Counted from the first letter of the stretch, positions 435 through 51,522 are shown. The stretch: 53,451 nucleotides of DNA from a virus (IMGVR_UViG_3300030333_004406:1-53451); one strand, 5' to 3'. Numbers and translations are program-made. The notes: generated by a model not told the origin, from the letters alone.

Positions 435-614
435 ATGAATTTATCAGAATTATTAGACGTTATGCAAGATGAAATGCATAGCGCACACGAGGAAATAGAC
501 AAGTTTATGGGTGGAAATAAATCAGCCGGAACTAGGGCTAGAAAGAGTATGCAAACAATTAAGGAGGCTGCTCAAAATGTGAGAAAACAAATTCAAACTA
601 TTAAAAATAGTTAA
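435..614 (+). CDS. Histone H1-like (Hc1-family, Bacteroidota-type) small DNA-binding protein, 59 aa; not in the ORF track
   Basis: Hand translation: MNLSELLDVMQDEMHSAHEEIDKFMGGNKSAGTRARKSMQTIKEAAQNVRKQIQTIKNS. GNKSAGTRARK is the family hallmark. Confidence 0.8.
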   Translation: MNLSELLDVMQDEMHSAHEEIDKFMGGNKSAGTRARKSMQTIKEAAQNVRKQIQTIKNS

Positions 615-620
615 AATAAT

Positions 621-647
621 AAAGGGAGCTTCGGCTCCCTTTTTTTA
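621..647. terminator. Bidirectional rho-independent terminator between convergent transcription units
   Basis: AAAGGGAGC-TTCG-GCTCCCTTTTTTT: perfect stem, C(UUCG)G loop, T-tract on + and A-rich flank on the other side. Confidence 0.9.
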
Positions 648-713
648 TCTTGATATTTTAAAGATTACATAACTAACTATAACAGCGGTTATACATATAG
701 GACACAAACACAT
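645..713 (-). CDS. Putative 22-aa Cys-rich hydrophobic peptide (MCLCPICITAVIVSYVIFKISR)
   Basis: ATG overlaps the thioredoxin-like stop (TAATG) and the ORF ends at the terminator. CxCxxC plus one hydrophobic helix. Confidence 0.5.
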   Translation of the reverse strand: MCLCPICITAVIVSYVIFKISR

Positions 714-1108
714 TATTGAAATTTATTTAATATTATTGTATCAACAGAGTTTTGTATAGTTTTTCTATCAGCTTCTAATTGAAACATTATATTAGGATTG
801 AATCTTACTTTTTCTACTCCGTTGTCAAAAATAATAACAGTTGGAATACCTGTTATATTATACTTAGTTTGTATATCGGAGTTAGCCATTATATCTAATC
901 TATACGATTCACACTCTTTTAATTTGTTTAACTCAGCGAATTGATTGGTTTTATTCCAATCAGCCCAAAATTCCACAGCAACAACATCTTTTGCTATTCG
1001 CTCTTTAAAATCACCATTAATAAAAGTTTGACCTTGAGCAACACCACATCCAAAAGCAAGTATCATTAATAAAATATAAATGTAATTTGATATATCTATT
1101 TTAATCAT
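713..1108 (-). CDS. Exported thioredoxin-fold protein lacking CxxC
   Basis: Signal peptide (AQG|Q), VAVEFWADWN where WCxxC is expected, and the cis-Pro motif ITGIPTVIIF. Confidence 0.8.
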   Translation of the reverse strand: MIKIDISNYIYILLMILAFGCGVAQGQTFINGDFKERIAKDVVAVEFWADWNKTNQFAELNKLKECESYRLDIMANSDIQTKYNITGIPTVIIFDNGVEKVRFNPNIMFQLEADRKTIQNSVDTIILNKFQ

Positions 1109-1449
1109 TGTCTTAATAATTTTATTTCTTCTTTCAACTCATCTACTTCCTTTACTAACGCGTCAATTTGGTTACGAGCCATTTGATCTTTCATATTAAA
1201 TTCCATTCTAGTTGGAGGCCAAGTGTTAGTCGCAGCTGGATCACCCATATCTATAGTGTATATACCTGTCCCAGGTTTAGGTAATTCTAATGCTTCATTA
1301 ACTTTGAGTTCTAGTTCTCCAAATTTAGAGTTGATAGTACTCATTAAACCAAAATAAGCAGATACAACTGTAACAACGGCTACAACTATACTGATTAGGG
1401 TTTTTATACTTATTTGAAATTTACTTTCTTCTGATAATTCTTTAGCCAT
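1105..1449 (-). CDS. Single-TM membrane protein with a C-terminal coiled coil
   Basis: TM segment ISIVVAVVTVVSAYFGL and heptad tail QIDALVKEVDELKEEIKLLRQ. ATGA overlap with the next gene. Confidence 0.7.
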   Translation of the reverse strand: MAKELSEESKFQISIKTLISIVVAVVTVVSAYFGLMSTINSKFGELELKVNEALELPKPGTGIYTIDMGDPAATNTWPPTRMEFNMKDQMARNQIDALVKEVDELKEEIKLLRQ

Positions 1450-1461
1450 TATTTATTAATT

Positions 1462-1863
1462 TTAATCTCCAAATGGAACATCTTCATTTTGATCTTGTTT
1501 GTCTATTTCTTTTTTCTTTTTCTTACCACCCCAATACTCAACAGCATAACCTTCTTCAACTAATTTGTCATTAATGTTTATAGACTCTTCTGCGACAGTA
1601 TATATTGTGCCAAGTACTCTTCCAAATTTACCTACCTCTCTACTTTCTAATATAAAATTTCCTTCGCCAAGTAATTCTATTAATCTAGCCTTAGAAGCTA
1701 AACCTCTAGCTTTTTCCTCTAAATCTCTGGTTCTAGATTCAGGCGTGTCAATACCGGTCAATCTAATTCTTTTATGTATAGTAATGTCAAATCCAAGATC
1801 TATATTAGCATCAATAGTATCACCATCAATAACTCTATCTAGTTTAGCTTTATATGTATACAT
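1462..1863 (-). CDS. Thermonuclease (SNase-like) family nuclease
   Basis: RVIDGDTID, RIRLTGIDTPE, GKFGRVLG, INDKLVEEGYA. The likely start is MYTYKAK at 1863 rather than 1890. Confidence 0.9.
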   Translation of the reverse strand: MYTYKAKLDRVIDGDTIDANIDLGFDITIHKRIRLTGIDTPESRTRDLEEKARGLASKARLIELLGEGNFILESREVGKFGRVLGTIYTVAEESININDKLVEEGYAVEYWGGKKKKKEIDKQDQNEDVPFGD

Positions 1864-1864
1864 A

Positions 1865-2518
1865 TTACTTTGAATAATAGATTTTCCCATTCTCTATATA
1901 CAAACCCTTTCTTACCAAAACCGCTTGTCCTTTGATATTATATATTACACTATTTTGAAGTGATTTATCTATTACTTCCATAATACTTGAATTACAAGGT
2001 AAACCTGAATCACAATCAATATATTCTACTATTTCTTCATATTGTATTTCTATAATAGTATCATACTCAATAACTGGTATTTCAATAAATAACGTATCCA
2101 ATATGTCATCGTATACAATAATCGTATCAGTTTGATATATATAATCAATTTCAACGATCGTATCGTATTCAATTATTGTTTCATATATCGTATTATATAT
2201 TGTATCAAATAATGTTTGATATTCAATTATTTCAACAAAAACCGTATCACATTCTGGTAACGGTGGAGCACAATCTTCTGGTGAAGTAGGTTCAGCTTCA
2301 TTTTCATCAGAAGCGTCAACACAGTCTTCCCACCCATCATTCAACCAAGATGTTTGTACGCACCCCATAGGAGAGTATTGAGTCCAATTTGCTGGATCAT
2401 CTCCACAATAAAAACCATTAGCCTCAGCGCAGTCTAAACATAATTGCTGAAAGTCGTATCCTTGCGCATTGACGAACGAGCCAATAAACGCAAATAGTAT
2501 TATAATATATTTCTTCAT
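1865..2518 (-). CDS. Secreted protein with an LDL-receptor class A-like module, DT(I/V/L)-repeat stalk and T9SS-CTD-like tail
   Basis: Signal peptide VNA|Q; FYC...GCVQTSWLNDGWEDCVDASDE; six DT[VIL] motifs; C-terminus IYNIKGQAVLVRKGLYIENGKIYYSK. Confidence 0.7.
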   Translation of the reverse strand: MKKYIIILFAFIGSFVNAQGYDFQQLCLDCAEANGFYCGDDPANWTQYSPMGCVQTSWLNDGWEDCVDASDENEAEPTSPEDCAPPLPECDTVFVEIIEYQTLFDTIYNTIYETIIEYDTIVEIDYIYQTDTIIVYDDILDTLFIEIPVIEYDTIIEIQYEEIVEYIDCDSGLPCNSSIMEVIDKSLQNSVIYNIKGQAVLVRKGLYIENGKIYYSK

Positions 2519-2535
2519 AATTTCATTTTTTAAAT

Positions 2536-2823
2536 TTATTTTTCATCTTTTTGTTTAGGGGTTATTGGTTTTACGGTACCATCTTCGTTTAGTTCAATTT
2601 CACTTTCCCAATTAGGATTATTCTTACGATACTCTGTAACTTGTTTTTTCTTTTCTTCCCATGATAACTTGTTACCATCAGGATCTGTAGCACCATGCAA
2701 ATCCCAAGCTTTTTTAGCATCTGCATCCTTTTTGTCAGTTATTCTCTGTTGTTCTTCTTCAGGAAGATTTGTCTCTTTTTTAAAAGGAAAACTCCCTTCG
2801 TTATATTTCATTTTAAAAGCCAT
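2536..2823 (-). CDS. Hypothetical charged protein with an N-terminal MAFKMK motif
   Basis: MAFKMKYNEGSFPFKKET; tightly packed in the operon. Confidence 0.7.
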   Translation of the reverse strand: MAFKMKYNEGSFPFKKETNLPEEEQQRITDKKDADAKKAWDLHGATDPDGNKLSWEEKKKQVTEYRKNNPNWESEIELNEDGTVKPITPKQKDEK

Positions 2824-2825
2824 AA

Positions 2826-3878
2826 TTAAAATATTAAATAGTTAAAACCAAACTTCACTTCGTACACTGGTTTCTCCCAGTATTTCATATGAGTCCCTTC
2901 AATAAACATCCCAAGTGATTTTGTAATCCTTGAGCCAAATACAATACCAGCATCCCATTCCATTGTATCCCATCTTTCATCTCCATATTCAAACGAGTAT
3001 TCGTCTAATCCGTAATGTAACGGTAAACAATTAGCCCAAATATGTAGCCATAATTTAGGTGTGTACTTATAATAAGCTAATCCTATAACAGCACTAACTT
3101 CTTTTTGTAAACCTAATTTCTCCAATTCACGTTCGTTAAACCGTGCAACTGCGTCTCCGAAATAGTGGTGGAAAAACTCGTCGTTTGAGGTAGCGATAAG
3201 TACGGAATCTCCACCACTGACATCGTACCAATTCTGGTCGATATAAAATCCTTGCATCCAAGGTTCTGAAGCATAACCAAAGTCTTCTGCTAAATCTTGA
3301 AATGTATTTTCTCCTGGAACCCAGAAATCATCTATTGGAGTTACACCATAAACAGGGTGAACCCTCATAACAGCTCCTAATGTTAAATCCCAGTTGCCTT
3401 TTGTTACTCTGTATCTAGTATCAAATGACATATATTTTAAATTTACTCTTTGATTATCTGTGTATTGTAATTTAGTAACACAACTATTACCTAAATATCT
3501 TAACCAAAAATTTTGATTATTAAATTTTTCTCCACGTTCACGGATAAAAGAATAGTTAAGTAAATATTCCCAACCAATAGCGTTTCCTATTGTCACATTA
3601 TCACTTACTCCATCTTCAGTTCCATAATACCATGTTTTAACCTTATATTCATAATCCATTCGAGCAATTTTTCTCAACCCTATTGTTAAGTTGTAATCAT
3701 ATGGATTAATTTCTGTTACATCCTCGTAACCCTTATCGACCGCTATATAATCTTCTGTTTCTACAAAAGATGTACCCATGGTCATCGATGTGTAGAACGT
3801 TGAATATTTAAAGAAGTCATTTAACTGAGCAGTGCAAATAGCGCTGACCAATAGAAATAGTAGTAGTATTTTTTTCAT
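2826..3878 (-). CDS. Putative outer-membrane beta-barrel protein
   Basis: Signal peptide CTA|Q, aromatic-rich amphipathic strands, and a C-terminal BAM-type beta-signal YEVKFGFNYLIF. Confidence 0.7.
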   Translation of the reverse strand: MKKILLLFLLVSAICTAQLNDFFKYSTFYTSMTMGTSFVETEDYIAVDKGYEDVTEINPYDYNLTIGLRKIARMDYEYKVKTWYYGTEDGVSDNVTIGNAIGWEYLLNYSFIRERGEKFNNQNFWLRYLGNSCVTKLQYTDNQRVNLKYMSFDTRYRVTKGNWDLTLGAVMRVHPVYGVTPIDDFWVPGENTFQDLAEDFGYASEPWMQGFYIDQNWYDVSGGDSVLIATSNDEFFHHYFGDAVARFNERELEKLGLQKEVSAVIGLAYYKYTPKLWLHIWANCLPLHYGLDEYSFEYGDERWDTMEWDAGIVFGSRITKSLGMFIEGTHMKYWEKPVYEVKFGFNYLIF

Positions 3879-4006
3879 TTTCCTTGTCCTTTATATAATT
3901 TTTTATAGTTCTTACTTTTTTTAAGAGTTGACGTTTTAGACTTAGCGTGAACTCCTTTTCTTTTTGTTCGTTTCTTTTTTTCAAAAACGTATACTAATCT
4001 AGCCAT
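3875..4006 (-). CDS. Small very basic phage protein, 43 aa; not in the ORF track
   Basis: MARLVYVFEKKKRTKRKGVHAKSKTSTLKKSKNYKKLYKGQGK, coupled to both neighbours (TAATG and ATGA overlaps). Ends in the Y[KR]GQG[KR] motif common in marine phages. Confidence 0.8.
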   Translation of the reverse strand: MARLVYVFEKKKRTKRKGVHAKSKTSTLKKSKNYKKLYKGQGK

Positions 4007-4503
4007 TATATAGTCTTATATTTTATTGTAACTTCCTCTCCACAATCAATAGCCTTTGCTATCTTGGGATATATTCTCTTATACGCTTGAGTTGATTTAC
4101 CTATAAAACCGTCCTTCGTGATTTGGTTGTTTTCTTGGGAGTCGCCAACGAGGAGACAGCCAGCTGTATGCTCATCGGTATTACCACAATGTATAAGAAT
4201 ATACTCAAAACCAGGCACATCAATAACGTGAAGCATGCCAATATGAATGTCTGGAAACCTCTTACTATACCTTTGATGATATCCACCTTCTTTTCTAAGA
4301 TCCAGCTTATAAGTTCCATTAGGAATTCTTGTCTCGCCATATATTTTTTTATCTCGTTGTTCATCTTCTAATGTGTATGCTAAAAATTTTCTTTTACATC
4401 TAAAACCCTCACCATGAGGATTGTTTGCTGTTCTATCTAGTTCCAATAACATACCATTGGTACTGTCAGTGCCACTAGAGAATCTAATTACTTCTAATTC
4501 CAT
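4006..4503 (-). CDS. DUF5675-family protein (putative L,D-peptidase-like cell-wall enzyme / endolysin candidate)
   Basis: YTLED, TRIPNGTYKL, DVPGFEYILIHCGNTDEHTAGCLLVG (HxGN...GC catalytic-type motif). Confidence 0.8.
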   Translation of the reverse strand: MELEVIRFSSGTDSTNGMLLELDRTANNPHGEGFRCKRKFLAYTLEDEQRDKKIYGETRIPNGTYKLDLRKEGGYHQRYSKRFPDIHIGMLHVIDVPGFEYILIHCGNTDEHTAGCLLVGDSQENNQITKDGFIGKSTQAYKRIYPKIAKAIDCGEEVTIKYKTI

Positions 4504-4817: not shown

Positions 4818-6143
4818 TTAACTTTCTATTATTTGCACCCCATCTATTGCTAAATCACTTCTAAAACCTGTTGCGTTTTGACTAACAAAATATATATAAT
4901 AATCAGTGTCATTTCTATAGCTATTTAGACTAATTGTTTTTTGTTGCCACACACTACTTGAATTTGTAAAACCACTAAATGATTCATAAGCTGCTAATTC
5001 TGTAGCATTACTATGATTAGAAGTTGTAGCATCATCTATGTATACATACAAATCTCCCATTTGAGATCCATAAGCGTGAACCCAAAATTTTAAATCTAAA
5101 TCATTTCCAGAGTCTATCATCTGATCACTATTGAACACTGGCATTCTAGCCACAAAACAATACAAATGTCTAAGTTGAGTTGTTTCAGTATACAAATATT
5201 TAGTTGATGAAGCATGCGAACCATCTGAAACATCAACGCCATTAGCGGGTCCAGTACTACCAGATGGTGTTGTGCCTGTGTCACAGTTCCAACCTTTAAC
5301 TGTTTTATTAGATGTTCTTCCCCAGTAAGTTCCATCTGTAGCACTTGATCCATTCACCCAATTATTACTTGGAGACCAACTACTTAGATGACTAGTCTGT
5401 GTTGTTTCACCTTCGAACTGATAAAATAGTTGATAAGGTGTGGGTTCCACTGTGTTACCGGGTTGAGCAATATTCGCTAAACTAGAAGTGCCAATTCCAT
5501 TTACTTTTAATATATCAGCTGGGGGTTCACCAATAACTTTATCAGGAAATTGCTCAGAATATGTTACTCTTAATCCTATCTCCCCAGGTCCACCTATTAC
5601 ACTAATGGGTGTACCAGCTGAGCCAACAATGTAGAGGGCAAAACCAAAATTAGCTTGATCACTAGGATCCCAAGATAATCCTGATAACGAATCACTAGCG
5701 CCCGCCATAACATCTGTACCAGAAACATTGTTTACATAGTATTTATTAGAACCTTGTAATGTTAATTCAGTTGAATCACCATTTAAGGTGCCACCACTTG
5801 GTGTAGATAAAAATGTTAAAGGAGCTGAATACGATGAGCCATTATAAAACCTCATCATCCAAACGTGATTTTCACTAGCACCCATTCCTCCAGCTGCACC
5901 AAACTTTCCATTACCCACGGTAGCTAGTTCAACCCCAGTTATAGTAGCTGTAGCTGGTATAGTACTTGAAAAACAACCTGACCACATATTACCCACTGGA
6001 GACGTACTAGTGGTATAAACAACATTAAAACCTGATGCATATAATCTCGTTGGTGCACCAAAACTAGCGTATGTGTTACCATCTCCTAGCGCTGTGCCTA
6101 AGGTAACGTTTGCTGTTGGTGGTGATATACTAGTAACAGCCAT
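4818..6143 (-). CDS. Tail/fibre-associated protein with a C-terminal MAM domain
   Basis: TPSGSTGP...KYLYTET...LKFWVHAYGSQMGDLYVY...WQQKTISL...SDLAIDGVQI matches the MAM pattern; central DKVIG...LKVNGI linker. Confidence 0.75.
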   Translation of the reverse strand: MAVTSISPPTANVTLGTALGDGNTYASFGAPTRLYASGFNVVYTTSTSPVGNMWSGCFSSTIPATATITGVELATVGNGKFGAAGGMGASENHVWMMRFYNGSSYSAPLTFLSTPSGGTLNGDSTELTLQGSNKYYVNNVSGTDVMAGASDSLSGLSWDPSDQANFGFALYIVGSAGTPISVIGGPGEIGLRVTYSEQFPDKVIGEPPADILKVNGIGTSSLANIAQPGNTVEPTPYQLFYQFEGETTQTSHLSSWSPSNNWVNGSSATDGTYWGRTSNKTVKGWNCDTGTTPSGSTGPANGVDVSDGSHASSTKYLYTETTQLRHLYCFVARMPVFNSDQMIDSGNDLDLKFWVHAYGSQMGDLYVYIDDATTSNHSNATELAAYESFSGFTNSSSVWQQKTISLNSYRNDTDYYIYFVSQNATGFRSDLAIDGVQIIES

Positions 6144-44595: not shown

Positions 44596-44870
44596 TATCT
44601 AGATCTTCCTTCGGCAAATCCCTTGAAAGTATTTTTCTTTTCCTCTTCAATAGGCTTACCCTCTAACATAGCTTCTTCTTCATGGATTCTATTTAATATT
44701 TCAAAAGCATCAAATATAGCTAACTTTTTTGTAGCTGCAGCATTCTTTAATCTGTCAGCTGATATATCTTCGTCTGAATCTACTATTTCTTCTCTAGCTA
44801 CTTTAATTAACTCTTCAACCGCCTTGTGTCCAGCTTGGATTATATTCTTTTTCGTTTCCTTGATATTCAT
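44595..44870 (-). CDS. Putative terminase small subunit
   Basis: 91-aa helical protein upstream of terL; call is by position and size only. Confidence 0.45.
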   Translation of the reverse strand: MNIKETKKNIIQAGHKAVEELIKVAREEIVDSDEDISADRLKNAAATKKLAIFDAFEILNRIHEEEAMLEGKPIEEEKKNTFKGFAEGRSR

Positions 44871-45393
44871 ATTTAATTGTAATAAATTTATTCATAACCC
44901 TATATAATCTTTCTCCATCAATAATAAATTCATATTCACTATTGGGTGTAAAACCCACTAATTCCTCTTTATTAAATGTTCCATCAGAATATTTAATAAC
45001 ACCAACTAGTGGTCTTTCAACTTCATTTCTAAGTTTATCAATAGAAACTAATGGTTTAACAAAACTATAACCAGGCGTTGCTTTTTTATTATATAAAAAA
45101 ATTTGATCACCCGATATCAAATACTTATTTTCTTTCCAATAAGATCTACTATTTCTTTCCCTACCTTTAACATCTGTCCATCTTCTAAATATATTGTGAT
45201 GCACTATTACCTCATCACCCACGTTAATGGGTGATTGAAATAACAGTGGAGTAGCGATTATTTTTGCTCTTCTATTTACAAAATGGTGATTAAAAATATC
45301 TGTATTAAGTATAAGTTCTTTTTCTCCAACTTTTTTAGAATTATTATATCTTTCACCTATTGGAGAAACTATAAAATCTTTATAAGCTTTCAT
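44815..45393 (-). CDS. GroES-like (tandem co-chaperonin fold) protein
   Basis: Two GroES-like halves: KKVGEKELIL...AKIIATP...VGDEVIV, and FVKPL...GVIKY...EFIIDGERLYRV. Confidence 0.5.
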   Translation of the reverse strand: MKAYKDFIVSPIGERYNNSKKVGEKELILNTDIFNHHFVNRRAKIIATPLLFQSPINVGDEVIVHHNIFRRWTDVKGRERNSRSYWKENKYLISGDQIFLYNKKATPGYSFVKPLVSIDKLRNEVERPLVGVIKYSDGTFNKEELVGFTPNSEYEFIIDGERLYRVMNKFITIKYEYQGNEKEYNPSWTQGG

Positions 45394-46727: not shown

Positions 46728-47153
46728 TTATTTATTATTATTTTGTTGTTCATTCTTTTTTGACGATCCGCCGAAAAAGAAATCGACTACCGTATTAACT
46801 TTTGCGCTCATTGCGCCAAATATTGTAGAGATAAAACTTATCTCAAATTCTCCTAATTCTAGATCTCCCATTACAAAGTATCTAAACATCATGAAACTTA
46901 ATCCAAAATATGCTAACGTGAATAATGACGCAAGTATCTTTTGAATAAGCGCATCGTCTTTATACATATCGCGAGCGCTCTTTCTGTCTTCGACTTCCTT
47001 TGCGAAGGCTTCTTTCTCAGCTTCAAGTAATAATCTTTTAAGAGCAAGCTTTGCTTCATCTCTTTCTTTGTCTGTTGTAATAACTTTGTCAAGTATTCCT
47101 TCTGCATTATCTACTATCTTACTGAATAAGCCACCTACTAAATTTTTTATCAT
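46728..47153 (-). CDS. Holin (GTA 3TM-like family)
   Basis: ILDKVITTDKER...EDRKSAR, then two TM helices ending in FFFGGS. Confidence 0.7.
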   Translation of the reverse strand: MIKNLVGGLFSKIVDNAEGILDKVITTDKERDEAKLALKRLLLEAEKEAFAKEVEDRKSARDMYKDDALIQKILASLFTLAYFGLSFMMFRYFVMGDLELGEFEISFISTIFGAMSAKVNTVVDFFFGGSSKKNEQQNNNK

Positions 47154-50333: not shown

Positions 50334-51125
50334 CTACTTATAGTATCCTTTTGGCTTTTTAACCCATTCCCACACTTGTTTTCCAGACTCTTCTTTTTCA
50401 CCAAAACCACCTGTTTGTTTCCAAATGTAACCCTCTCTATCTCCTGTTCCATGAGTGTCAGCGTCTGTTGCTCCACCCGGTTCAACACCTTGTTGTTCTT
50501 CTCTGGTTTCAGTATGGTACTTTCTACCATCCCACATAAAGTTTTCTTTACCAGCTTTTCTAGCTGCAGCAAAAGCTTCCTTAAAAGTTTGTGTAGGTGT
50601 TTGGTTGTTTTTCTTAACTTTTTCTCCATCTACTTTTTTAACAACTTTTTCTCCACCCTTTTTAACAATAGTCTTGTCTGTTGTCACATTTAAACCTTCA
50701 CCTGATTTCTTTTTCTCGGTTCCTCTTATTACCTCTCCTTTATTGTTTTTTAAAGTTCTTGTAACCGCATCTTTTCTTCCTTGTTCGTTAGTTGTCTTTT
50801 GTGTTTCCAATGTAGCAACACCTAAGTCTCTATTAACATCTTTATTCAAATTAGCTCTCTTAGGTTTACCTTCTTTAATGTTTTTAACCATCTGTTTTTT
50901 TCTAGATAGTTTGTTCTTTACATTAGATATTCTATTTTCTAATCTCCCTTTTTTTCCTTCAGATATACCTTCTTTATTTAGCTTTTCTTCTAACCTTTGT
51001 TGTTTTTTAGTTAATCTTTCAACAGCTCTTTCAGATTGGTTTTTGTTTAAAGGGCCTGTAGCACCTTGTGCGCCTTGAGGAGGTTGATTTTGCCATCCGC
51101 CCCAGCCGTTCATTTTAAACGCCAT
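50334..51125 (-). CDS. Basic hypothetical protein with a MAFKM N-terminus and an F.EAF..AR...F.W.G..Y module
   Basis: MAFKMNGW..., Lys-rich coiled coil, TFKEAFAAARKAGKENFMWDGRKYHTE. Confidence 0.7.
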   Translation of the reverse strand: MAFKMNGWGGWQNQPPQGAQGATGPLNKNQSERAVERLTKKQQRLEEKLNKEGISEGKKGRLENRISNVKNKLSRKKQMVKNIKEGKPKRANLNKDVNRDLGVATLETQKTTNEQGRKDAVTRTLKNNKGEVIRGTEKKKSGEGLNVTTDKTIVKKGGEKVVKKVDGEKVKKNNQTPTQTFKEAFAAARKAGKENFMWDGRKYHTETREEQQGVEPGGATDADTHGTGDREGYIWKQTGGFGEKEESGKQVWEWVKKPKGYYK

Positions 51126-51147: not shown

Positions 51148-51522
51148 TTAATTAATTAATTTTTCCGCTTGAATAGCTTCTGCTTCCCAAGGGTGGTTTG
51201 GATGACCCTCTGGCCACCTGCCATTTGGTCCATCTATAACAGGTGTACCATTTTCTGTTTTTCTTAAATATATTTTACCCTCCCACATCACGTAATTATC
51301 ACCATAACCTGCTCTTCCTGATGCTATTTGCTCCATGTGACACATTTCATGCGCGATAACTTTTCTACCGAACTTACTATTTAAATCTATAGAAGGATCT
51401 ATATCTATAGATCCATCCATATTTGCTTGTGCTAAAGCGCCTTCGCCAGCATCACCTCTCTTAACGGTTACATTAAGCGAGCTTTTAATATCTCTTTTTT
51501 CACTTCCTAACTTAAAAGCCAT
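51148..51522 (-). CDS. Small zincin-like metallopeptidase
   Basis: VIAHEMCHMEQ (HExxH) plus distal PWEAEA; MAFKL N-terminus. Confidence 0.75.
   Translation of the reverse strand: MAFKLGSEKRDIKSSLNVTVKRGDAGEGALAQANMDGSIDIDPSIDLNSKFGRKVIAHEMCHMEQIASGRAGYGDNYVMWEGKIYLRKTENGTPVIDGPNGRWPEGHPNHPWEAEAIQAEKLIN

Follow-up and report, generated by a model that had tools for sequence, protein, structure and literature searches.

A barrel, an inner-membrane protein and a thioredoxin-fold protein in the probable lysis cassette of an uncultured Flavobacteriia phage

The 53,451-bp IMG/VR virus record IMGVR_UViG_3300030333_004406, called the window here at its full length, belongs to an uncultured, marine, podovirus-like phage of Flavobacteriia. 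Its late operon ends in nine open reading frames (ORFs) between positions 645 and 4503 (Table 1), which very probably form a lysis cassette with a DUF5675 protein as the endolysin, and into which unrelated passenger genes are spliced. At the core of this cassette stands a trio: an outer-membrane beta-barrel, a type II inner-membrane protein with one transmembrane segment (the TM protein) and an exported thioredoxin-fold protein without CxxC (Trx). The trio is the only candidate in the window for the outer-membrane step of lysis, and, judged from its gene neighbourhood, the chances that it performs this step appear about even. The full reading, to which we assign a probability of roughly 0.4, is that the trio represents a third, lipoprotein-independent class of phage outer-membrane disruptor, a three-part envelope bridge with the barrel as its BAM-inserted outer anchor. 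It would be used by hundreds of spanin-less marine Flavobacteriia phages and would be paired here with a DUF5675 endolysin and a holin concealed in another reading frame of the endolysin gene.

The core emerges from a comparison of related loci. A barrel-centred sample comprised 35 IMG/VR loci and 80 more obtained through a divergent barrel alignment; 111 barrel loci reduced to 90 unique ones, 64 of which are assessable, with a complete barrel followed by 3.5 kb or more of sequence. For a TM-centred sample, a distant TM protein served as query and 80 of 316 relatives gave 72 unique loci. TM protein and Trx occur together in 60/64 barrel loci, and a secreted protein with an LDL-A-like head in 52/64. 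Starting from the TM protein, Trx lies directly downstream in all 66 assessable loci, while the barrel is found within 4.5 kb upstream in 43 of 51 and downstream in 2 more. The core is therefore the trio, the TM-Trx pair is its tightest unit, and the secreted protein is a frequent fourth member. A first-pass annotation of the same DNA had described nine tightly packed, often overlapping ORFs at the end of the late operon, and this description stands: all nine lie on the minus strand with junctions of -1, -4, +2, +17, -26, +12, -4 and -1 nt, followed by a terminator. Its view of the nine genes as one trans-envelope system has to be given up: four genes are variable insertions. Of these, the staphylococcal-nuclease-like endonuclease (SNase) and the MAFKM protein are cytoplasmic by sequence, and DUF5675 is read as an endolysin. 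The synteny it proposed as a check is borne out for the core and fails for the SNase, the MAFKM protein, the basic peptide and the CxCxxC ORF.

The trio is confined to phages. Relatives of the barrel are encoded in at least 587 IMG/VR stretches, and Tara relatives also exist; a set of 5.8 billion proteins holds 305 relatives, with no Pfam domain or informative name among the 120 listed, and 304 cluster representatives were found among 1.84 billion proteins. Across the 185,579 species genomes of GTDB the barrel appears at three loci only, one in a Flavobacteriales metagenome-assembled genome (MAG) and two on contigs binned as Woesearchaeota, which we suspect to be mis-binned. The 30 nearest ESM Atlas clusters are all viral for the barrel and likewise for the TM protein, those of the latter with no common Pfam family, and the nearest named clusters of both score 0.80-0.93, a level flagged as often due to chance. 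In 50,697 GenBank phage records, tblastn found no match for the window barrel, the window TM protein, the L116 barrel or the L104 TM protein, so that no cultured carrier is known from these collections.

What links the trio to lysis is the company it keeps. Lysins and holins were recognised with our own hidden Markov models (HMMs), which were built from the first 35 loci and, for the lysins, are incomplete. A recognised lysin lies within -3 to +7 kb in 56/64 loci, and the lysin beside the trio swaps among five unrelated types: DUF5675, a phrog_33083 type, two forms of Peptidase_M15_3 and Amidase_2. DUF5675 is found upstream in 24/64 loci, and in 8/64 its slot is taken by a 202-aa protein matching phrog_33083 'endolysin' (2.2e-14). 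Peptidase_M15_3 follows downstream of Trx in 24/64 (Pfam 5.2e-9; phrog_894 endolysin 2.5e-26), its second form is present in 3 of the 8 loci in which the lysin had been missed (Pfam 4e-13 on L109), and on the Flavobacteriales MAG contig, whose barrel is 32% identical, the trio is followed by a protein combining PG_binding_1 and Amidase_2. A phrog_3427 holin (2.2e-19) is present in 26/64 loci, usually right after M15_3, and a small holin-like gene with two TM segments (2-TM) lies just upstream of the TM protein in 22/64, one such neighbour matching phrog_1296 'holin' at 2.8e-4. Loci with barrels of about 40% identity carry, in order, a 2-TM protein, barrel, TM protein, Trx, secreted protein, M15 endolysin and holin. 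The lysis-cassette reading rests on these two features, the swapping of lysin types beside the trio and the adjacent holin in many loci. The link between trio and lysin is strong, not universal.

The DUF5675 protein itself is securely assigned to its family (PF18925 E 3.9e-26, 91.6 bits against a gathering cut-off of 26.7; phrog_1501 E 4e-25). H105 and C116 of its motif IHCGN..TxGC are invariant in 16/16 homologues, and a comparison with PDB sequences gave no match at E<=1. The available text of a recent preprint (bioRxiv 10.64898/2026.04.11.717860) groups DUF5675 structurally with C82 peptidases, and the MEROPS C82-like candidate lysins with an L,D-transpeptidase fold described there share with the window protein the Pfam family and the conserved His...Gly-Cys signature. 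The protein is best read as a candidate endolysin, a C82-like Cys/His peptidase.

Where, then, is the holin? A lipobox scan first flagged a hydrophobic ORF within DUF5675 genes, in the +1 frame, whose product would begin with a hydrophilic stretch, continue through a hydrophobic core of about 25-30 aa and end in a basic tail. When synonymous codons of the DUF5675 gene were redrawn from the codon usage of the window, at least 88 codons were open in 3 of 5000 trials (mean 30.9), and same-strand alternative-frame stretches of at least 80 codons number just 3 in 49,512 coding nt. The frame is open over at least 82 codons in 31 of 34 distinct DUF5675 genes, with hydrophobic core and basic tail retained. 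With redrawing confined to codons in which a homologue departs from the window, the frame would be expected to stay open in 5.2 of 33 homologues; it does so in 30, and the 33 are not independent of one another. This ORF is probably an overlapping holin-like gene, which fits DUF5675 as an endolysin. A comparable arrangement reportedly exists in Staphylococcus phage 187, where the holin gene hol187 is embedded out of frame in the endolysin gene ply187; there, too, a short basic-tailed membrane protein is said to be encoded in an alternative frame wholly inside a lysin gene. In contrast to phage 187, the window phage has a Gram-negative host and a lysin of the DUF5675 family, and its embedded ORF is a prediction from sequence. 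Another long alternative-frame stretch of 98 codons, also in the +1 frame, lies inside a MAFKM-type gene at 50334-51125 (-). Outside the cassette, a 141-aa protein provides a second holin candidate with a weak match to phrog_3427 'holin' (E 6e-5) and one to GTA_holin_3TM below its cut-off (E 0.012). Its homologue adjoins the M15 endolysin and the trio in distant loci (phrog_3427 E 2.2e-19).

Turning to the trio, the barrel had been recognised as an outer-membrane beta-barrel in the first-pass annotation, and structure prediction agrees. The AlphaFold2 (AF2) model has about 12 long strands (pLDDT 68, pTM 0.68), and in a Foldseek comparison with the PDB all 43 matches at E<=0.001 are outer-membrane barrels, with BrkA, NanC, FapF and invasin on top. 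The window barrel belongs to no family in Pfam, PHROGs or NCBIfam, and 0/21 diverse members match outer-membrane protein (OMP) families (PorP/SprF, Phage_OMP PF24653, OMP_b-brl and others) at E<=0.5. A lipid hydrolase of the OMPLA or PagL kind was considered and dropped; S262 and H279 are near-invariant, and both would face the lumen by strand alternation read from the sequence. Other phage-encoded barrels are known, such as the porin- and autotransporter-like ones in BFVD and Phage_OMP PF24653 of cyanophages, which are phage-borne and Sec-exported like the window barrel. Phage_OMP has no HMM relationship to the window barrel, the sole link being an ESM Atlas feature score of 0.93, which is often chance, and the BFVD and Atlas barrels were compared without their gene context.

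The N-terminus of the TM protein is short and acidic. Its one TM segment, the single hydrophobic segment in a 19-aa window scan, starts at about residue 10 and is followed by a periplasmic helix, a Pro/Gly linker and a heptad helix. With the helices read from sequence, the order of TM segment, helix, Pro-rich linker and heptad helix recurs across 27 diverse members, and the heptad helix is marked by the 3-4 hydrophobic spacing of I95, L98, V102, L105, I109 and L112, on which the coiled coil noted at first pass rests. It contains no Cys, and its only family hit is a weak match to phrog_20984, whose function is unknown. In L148, L151, L154, L155, L162, L163, L167 and L171, another paralogue (108-112 aa) is encoded after Trx or the secreted protein.

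Trx, whose start overlaps the stop of the TM protein by 4 nt, is a thioredoxin-fold protein by PF00085 (E 3.5e-7, 30.6 bits against a cut-off of 23.5), with TIGR01068 below its cut-off (E 2.7e-9). At the usual WCGPC site it reads FWADWN (W-A-D-W-N), and none of 44 members has a Cys pair, so that the earlier description as an exported thioredoxin without CxxC is upheld. Q27, N52, N55, P89 and T90 are invariant in 44/44. A lipoprotein reading of its N-terminus (AFG/C; slashes mark the end of the signal peptide) was rejected, as the Cys is not conserved and Q27 is invariant.

Three proteins carry signal peptides that end before Gln, as had been noted at first pass. Every distinct homologue of the barrel (86/86), of the LDLa-like protein (71/71) and of Trx (71/71) fits a heuristic of a hydrophobic core followed by small-x-small/Q, compared with 30 of 853 other ORFs of at least 100 aa. 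The available texts of PMC5837995 and PMC10653852 establish this Q-rule for Bacteroidetes. The notion of a cassette of exported proteins is thus correct for these three and does not extend to the DUF5675 protein, the basic peptide, the MAFKM protein and the SNase, which have no N-terminal hydrophobic segment.

How do these components compare with spanins? According to the available text of Kongari et al. (2018; PMC6139136), no spanin was found in 91 of 677 phages of Gram-negative hosts, including Bacteroides phage B124-14 and Croceibacter phages P2559S/Y, and its authors ask if another route exists. The available text of Bartlau et al. (2021; PMC8776804) mentions only potential unimolecular spanins, one in each of two flavophage groups. 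A lysis module containing a barrel is not described in the available text of PMC8776804, PMC10136315 and PMC6139136. A search of the six frames of the window for a lipobox with a hydrophobic core found one such site in a real gene, the non-conserved AFG/C of Trx, and otherwise only two antisense ORFs within large genes, in agreement with the earlier remark that no lipoprotein spanin was seen. An ORF of the unimolecular type (T1 gp11, with N-terminal lipoprotein signal and C-terminal transmembrane domain) is absent from the window, and no recurrent lipoprotein ORF of the small o-spanin kind exists in the 64 loci, where a single 61-aa candidate occurs in L062 only.

The two-component spanins typified by lambda Rz/Rz1 offer several parallels, as far as the available text of PMC6139136 describes them. 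They, too, sit in the lysis cassette beside endolysin and holin, have a type II inner-membrane partner with a helix-linker-helix periplasmic domain whose gene overlaps the next, and have an outer-membrane partner encoded alongside. The TM protein shows the i-spanin topology, being type II with an N-terminal TM domain and a largely helical periplasmic part, and its gene is placed as spanin genes are, adjacent or overlapping and near lysis genes (4-nt overlap, Trx 66/66, lysin 56/64). Sequence similarity to Rz/Rz1 is lacking, however; a 350-aa beta-barrel takes the place of the small Pro-rich lipoprotein at the outer membrane, a third, soluble partner with a thioredoxin fold appears obligatory, and no conserved periplasmic Cys is available for intermolecular disulfides.

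The frequent fourth member is a secreted protein that consists of a Cys-rich LDL-A-like head, a Pro linker, an acidic stalk of D/E-T-I/V repeats whose length differs between relatives, and a tail of about 40 aa. In its mature form it has a pI of 4.05, with 41 D+E against 6 K+R. It had been labelled as LDLa- and type IX secretion system (T9SS)-like. For the head, the Ldl_recept_a PF00057 match stays below threshold (17.9 bits against 24.1); D61, W63, D65, C66, D71 and E72 are invariant, with invariant Cys and a D-x-S-D-E pattern. AF2 models the head at pLDDT 80-87, the stalk at 24-36 and the tail, one helix with three strands, at about 71; Foldseek returns nothing at E<=0.001 and ranks LDL-A modules on top at E>=1.2. 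In the tail, G197 and I208 are invariant and Y193, N194 and Y207 are kept in at least 90%, a pattern that fits motifs B and D of the short CTDs discussed below. The T9SS label is plausible by motif only; no T9SS C-terminal domain (CTD) family matches the tail (Pfam and NCBIfam at E<=0.1; Pfam at E<=1). A long T9SS CTD was rejected, with no HMM or fold support, no CTD structure among the Foldseek matches listed and no seven-strand beta-sandwich.

A closer likeness is found in the 48 'short' type A T9SS CTDs of Prevotella intermedia, in which, according to the available text of Ye et al. (2025; PMC11969387), motifs B, D and E are separated by only 1-6 residues and the fold is a three-stranded sheet. 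The window tail resembles them in its length of about 40 aa, a Y..G motif, GxY-I after 1-6 residues, a terminal basic residue and a predicted fold of a three-stranded sheet with a short helix. Unlike the Prevotella proteins, the window protein is phage-encoded, has a host of another class and is without HMM support. Our own tail pattern, which is not the model of Ye et al., matches 93 of 1424 ORFs, all 93 with a hydrophobic N-terminus. In 53/64 barrel loci there is a protein that combines a signal peptide with a short-CTD-like tail, and in the TM-centred sample such a protein is found in 17/46. In distant loci, unrelated secreted proteins of 170-200 aa follow Trx, and their tails also fit the short-CTD description.

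These elements can be assembled into a tentative sequence of events. A holin, encoded by the embedded ORF, by 46728-47153 or by both, would release the DUF5675 peptidase, which would cut the wall before the trio opens the outer membrane. The TM protein would play the i-spanin part, anchored in the inner membrane with its helix-linker-helix reaching into the periplasm; the barrel, inserted by BAM, would replace the lipoprotein o-spanin as outer-membrane anchor; and the redox-dead Trx might act as a periplasmic adaptor or chaperone between the two. The acidic LDL-A-like protein, probably destined for the outer membrane or its surface, would be an optional accessory. Topology signals and gene linkage are what we observe here, and every interaction and the outer-membrane activity of the trio are inferred. 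A complex prediction for barrel 18-350 and TM protein 40-114 with Trx 27-131 as partner scored 0.00 (mark 0.32) and, run without controls, gives no verdict either way.

Several points weigh against this reading. All loci were found via the barrel or the TM protein, so that the co-occurrence counts are conditional on those genes; L027, L073, L074 and L076 keep barrel and secreted protein without TM protein and Trx, and 8 of 51 TM-Trx loci have no barrel upstream, which speaks against an obligate trio. In the TM-centred sample, our own models recognise a lysin within 4.5 kb in 41/66 loci only and a holin in 36/66. Synonymous sites covered by the embedded ORF vary no less than those outside it (0.378 vs 0.351), and the product of this ORF matches no PHROG holin. 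The periplasmic part of the TM protein, about 55-75 residues, is short for bridging the periplasm alone, and a barrel cannot obviously drive membrane fusion in the way a lipid-anchored o-spanin does. The assignment of function relies on guilt by association, as no member has a relative of known function. Late operon ends also collect morons. Finally, the frequent T9SS-like cargo points to surface display, not lysis.

This last point leads to surface remodelling, superinfection exclusion or progeny protection, which we consider unlikely as the main role. Here, the barrel and a T9SS-delivered, acidic, Ca-binding protein would be planted in the envelope of the host, where TM protein and Trx would help to assemble them; the two would mask receptors or stop released virions from sticking to debris, and the proximity to lysis genes would reflect late timing only. 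The position of the cassette downstream of tail-fibre-like genes (1375 aa, and 441 aa with a MAM domain) would suit such a role, as would the companionship of barrel and short-CTD-like-tailed protein (53/64, with all 93 pattern matches having a hydrophobic N-terminus) and the common occurrence of porin- and autotransporter-type barrels of phages in BFVD. The available text of PMC10367356, moreover, reads Q-rule secreted proteins of P. gingivalis phages as envelope modifiers. However, the barrel is tied more closely to the TM-Trx pair (60/64) than to the cargo, a cargo-like protein being present in just 17/46 TM-centred loci, and the trio stays beside endolysin and holin genes while their types change. 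No PADLOC defence family matches any core member, and only the nuclease domain of the SNase matches a candidate model. Exclusion genes are, in addition, usually expressed early. Among the three roles offered by the first-pass annotation, which also listed exclusion and remodelling, the co-occurrence of the core with lysis genes favours outer-membrane disruption at lysis.

A role in lysis timing has still less to recommend it. The TM protein would then be an antiholin or sensor as reported for T4 RI, with Trx and barrel informing the holin about the state of the envelope or about superinfection. With 90-122 aa, an N-terminal TM segment and periplasmic helices, TM proteins could by size and topology be antiholins no less than i-spanins, many loci have a small holin-like gene (2-TM or 1-TM) immediately before them, and the additional 108-112-aa paralogue of some loci could be accommodated. 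On the other hand, the TM protein has no homology to any antiholin, the near-constant outer-membrane barrel is left unexplained, and these phages would be without a candidate for the outer-membrane step. That the genes have no joint function, being independent morons that hitch-hike at a recombination-prone late operon end in synteny through shared descent, is very improbable: the region is indeed highly mosaic, with many small inserts that differ between close relatives and several clear passengers in the cassette, yet the order of the trio and the 4-nt overlap persist down to about 30-40% barrel identity in different contexts, while all else around the trio is replaced in distant loci.

Table 1 Features of the cassette and the second holin candidate, in window coordinates.
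Feature	Position	Strand	Basis
Bidirectional intrinsic terminator, late operon end	621-642		9-bp stem, 5 GC pairs, T runs on both strands
Hydrophobic CxCxxC ORF, 22 aa, doubtful or variable	645-713	-	5/35 loci by tblastn; no family match
Sec-exported thioredoxin-fold protein without CxxC (Trx), 131 aa, AQG/Q, core member	713-1108	-	PF00085
Type II inner-membrane protein (TM protein), 114 aa, i-spanin-like, core member	1105-1449	-	TM scan and alignment
Staphylococcal-nuclease-like endonuclease (SNase), 142 aa, no signal peptide, variable passenger	1462-1890	-	PF00565
Secreted acidic protein, 217 aa, VNA/Q, frequent fourth member	1865-2518	-	Alignment, AF2
MAFKM protein, 95 aa, no signal peptide, variable passenger	2536-2823	-	Basic 'MAFK[ML]' multigene family
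Outer-membrane beta-barrel, 350 aa, signal peptide CTA/Q, C-terminal ..NYLIF, core member	2826-3878	-	AF2 and Foldseek
Very basic ORF, 43 aa, 17 K+R, pI 10.8, variable passenger	3875-4006	-	ORF call
DUF5675 protein, 165 aa, no signal peptide, candidate endolysin	4006-4503	-	Pfam, PHROG, conserved His/Cys
Embedded holin-like ORF, 87 codons, +1 frame of DUF5675 gene	4101-4364	-	Open-frame statistics
141-aa protein, second holin candidate, outside cassette	46728-47153	-	Amphipathic N-terminus and two hydrophobic stretches

The record is 98% complete by CheckV, and its minus strand carries nearly all transcription. Terminase, portal and capsid-type proteins of the window fall into PHROG head and packaging families. 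Relatives of the terminase in GenBank phage records (n=87) come from 68 Flavobacterium, 15 Cellulophaga, 2 Tenacibaculum and 1 Maribacter phages, and the best match is the uncultured Caudoviricetes genome MW202828 with 62.5% identity. The annotation of MW202828 has no gene between the giant protein and the strand switch, the place where the cassette would be expected. It does include groEL and a 10-kDa chaperonin, and in the window a 192-aa protein at 44815-45393 (-) matches phrog_13932 'co-chaperonin GroES' (E 4.4e-15). The terminator of the late operon faces convergent plus-strand genes, the first of which, at 435-614 (+), encodes an Hc1 histone-H1-like protein (PF07432 E 1.5e-17) that is kept in most related loci. 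On the other side, just upstream of the cassette, the 441-aa protein at 4818-6143 (-) has a MAM domain (PF00629 E 1.6e-7) and may be a receptor-binding or fibre-tip protein.

The SNase, present in 8/64 loci, is well supported (PF00565 E 1.3e-12, 48.5 bits against a cut-off of 21; phrog_452 E 1.5e-41). About 130 nt of its gene (1709-1841) have 69-76% DNA identity to endonuclease genes in 127 phage records, 125 of them Synechococcus or Prochlorococcus cyanophages and 2 Staphylococcus phages, which suggests an exchange of the gene between marine phage groups. The MAFKM family is found in 17/64 loci with varying position and copy number, and paralogue-like N-termini also occur at the other end of the window, at 50334-51125 and 51148-51522 (-). 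A MAFK[ML] start is common to many Lys-rich, low-complexity, small to mid-sized proteins (related-loci families f16, f18, f33 and f38); these may be a family of mobile or packaged proteins that have a signal at the N-terminus in common. The basic 43-aa ORF, detected in 8/64 assessable loci and in 12/35 by tblastn, has no family match in Pfam or PHROGs. Its reading as a disruptin-like cationic peptide was dropped, since it is not amphipathic and has such a narrow distribution.

Related loci hold further variants. A PAP2-family phosphatase, an envelope-lipid-related passenger, lies downstream of Trx in 13/64 loci (e.g. L020:15110-15676, PF01569 E 4e-7). Distant cassettes such as L109 and L113 add a 74-aa 3-TM protein after the M15 lysin as well as a second, small barrel-like exported protein of 135-139 aa (L109:10764-11180, L113:10708-11115), with a weak match to OMP_b-brl at E 0.031. 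On one Woesearchaeota-binned contig the TM-Trx pair gives way to a 147-aa Pro/Tyr-rich lipoprotein-like ORF (..AFAS/C; L118:9440-9883) after the barrel, which may reflect a swap to a partner of o-spanin type.

The available text of Kongari et al. (2018; PMC6139136) leaves open by which route spanin-less phages breach the outer membrane. Marine Flavobacteriia are major degraders of algal carbon, and their lysis by phages is poorly annotated. The cassette offers a concrete, abundant and phage-only candidate module for this step. It also suggests DUF5675 as a working endolysin family with an overlapping holin, and both would improve the annotation of Bacteroidota phages and the discovery of lysins.

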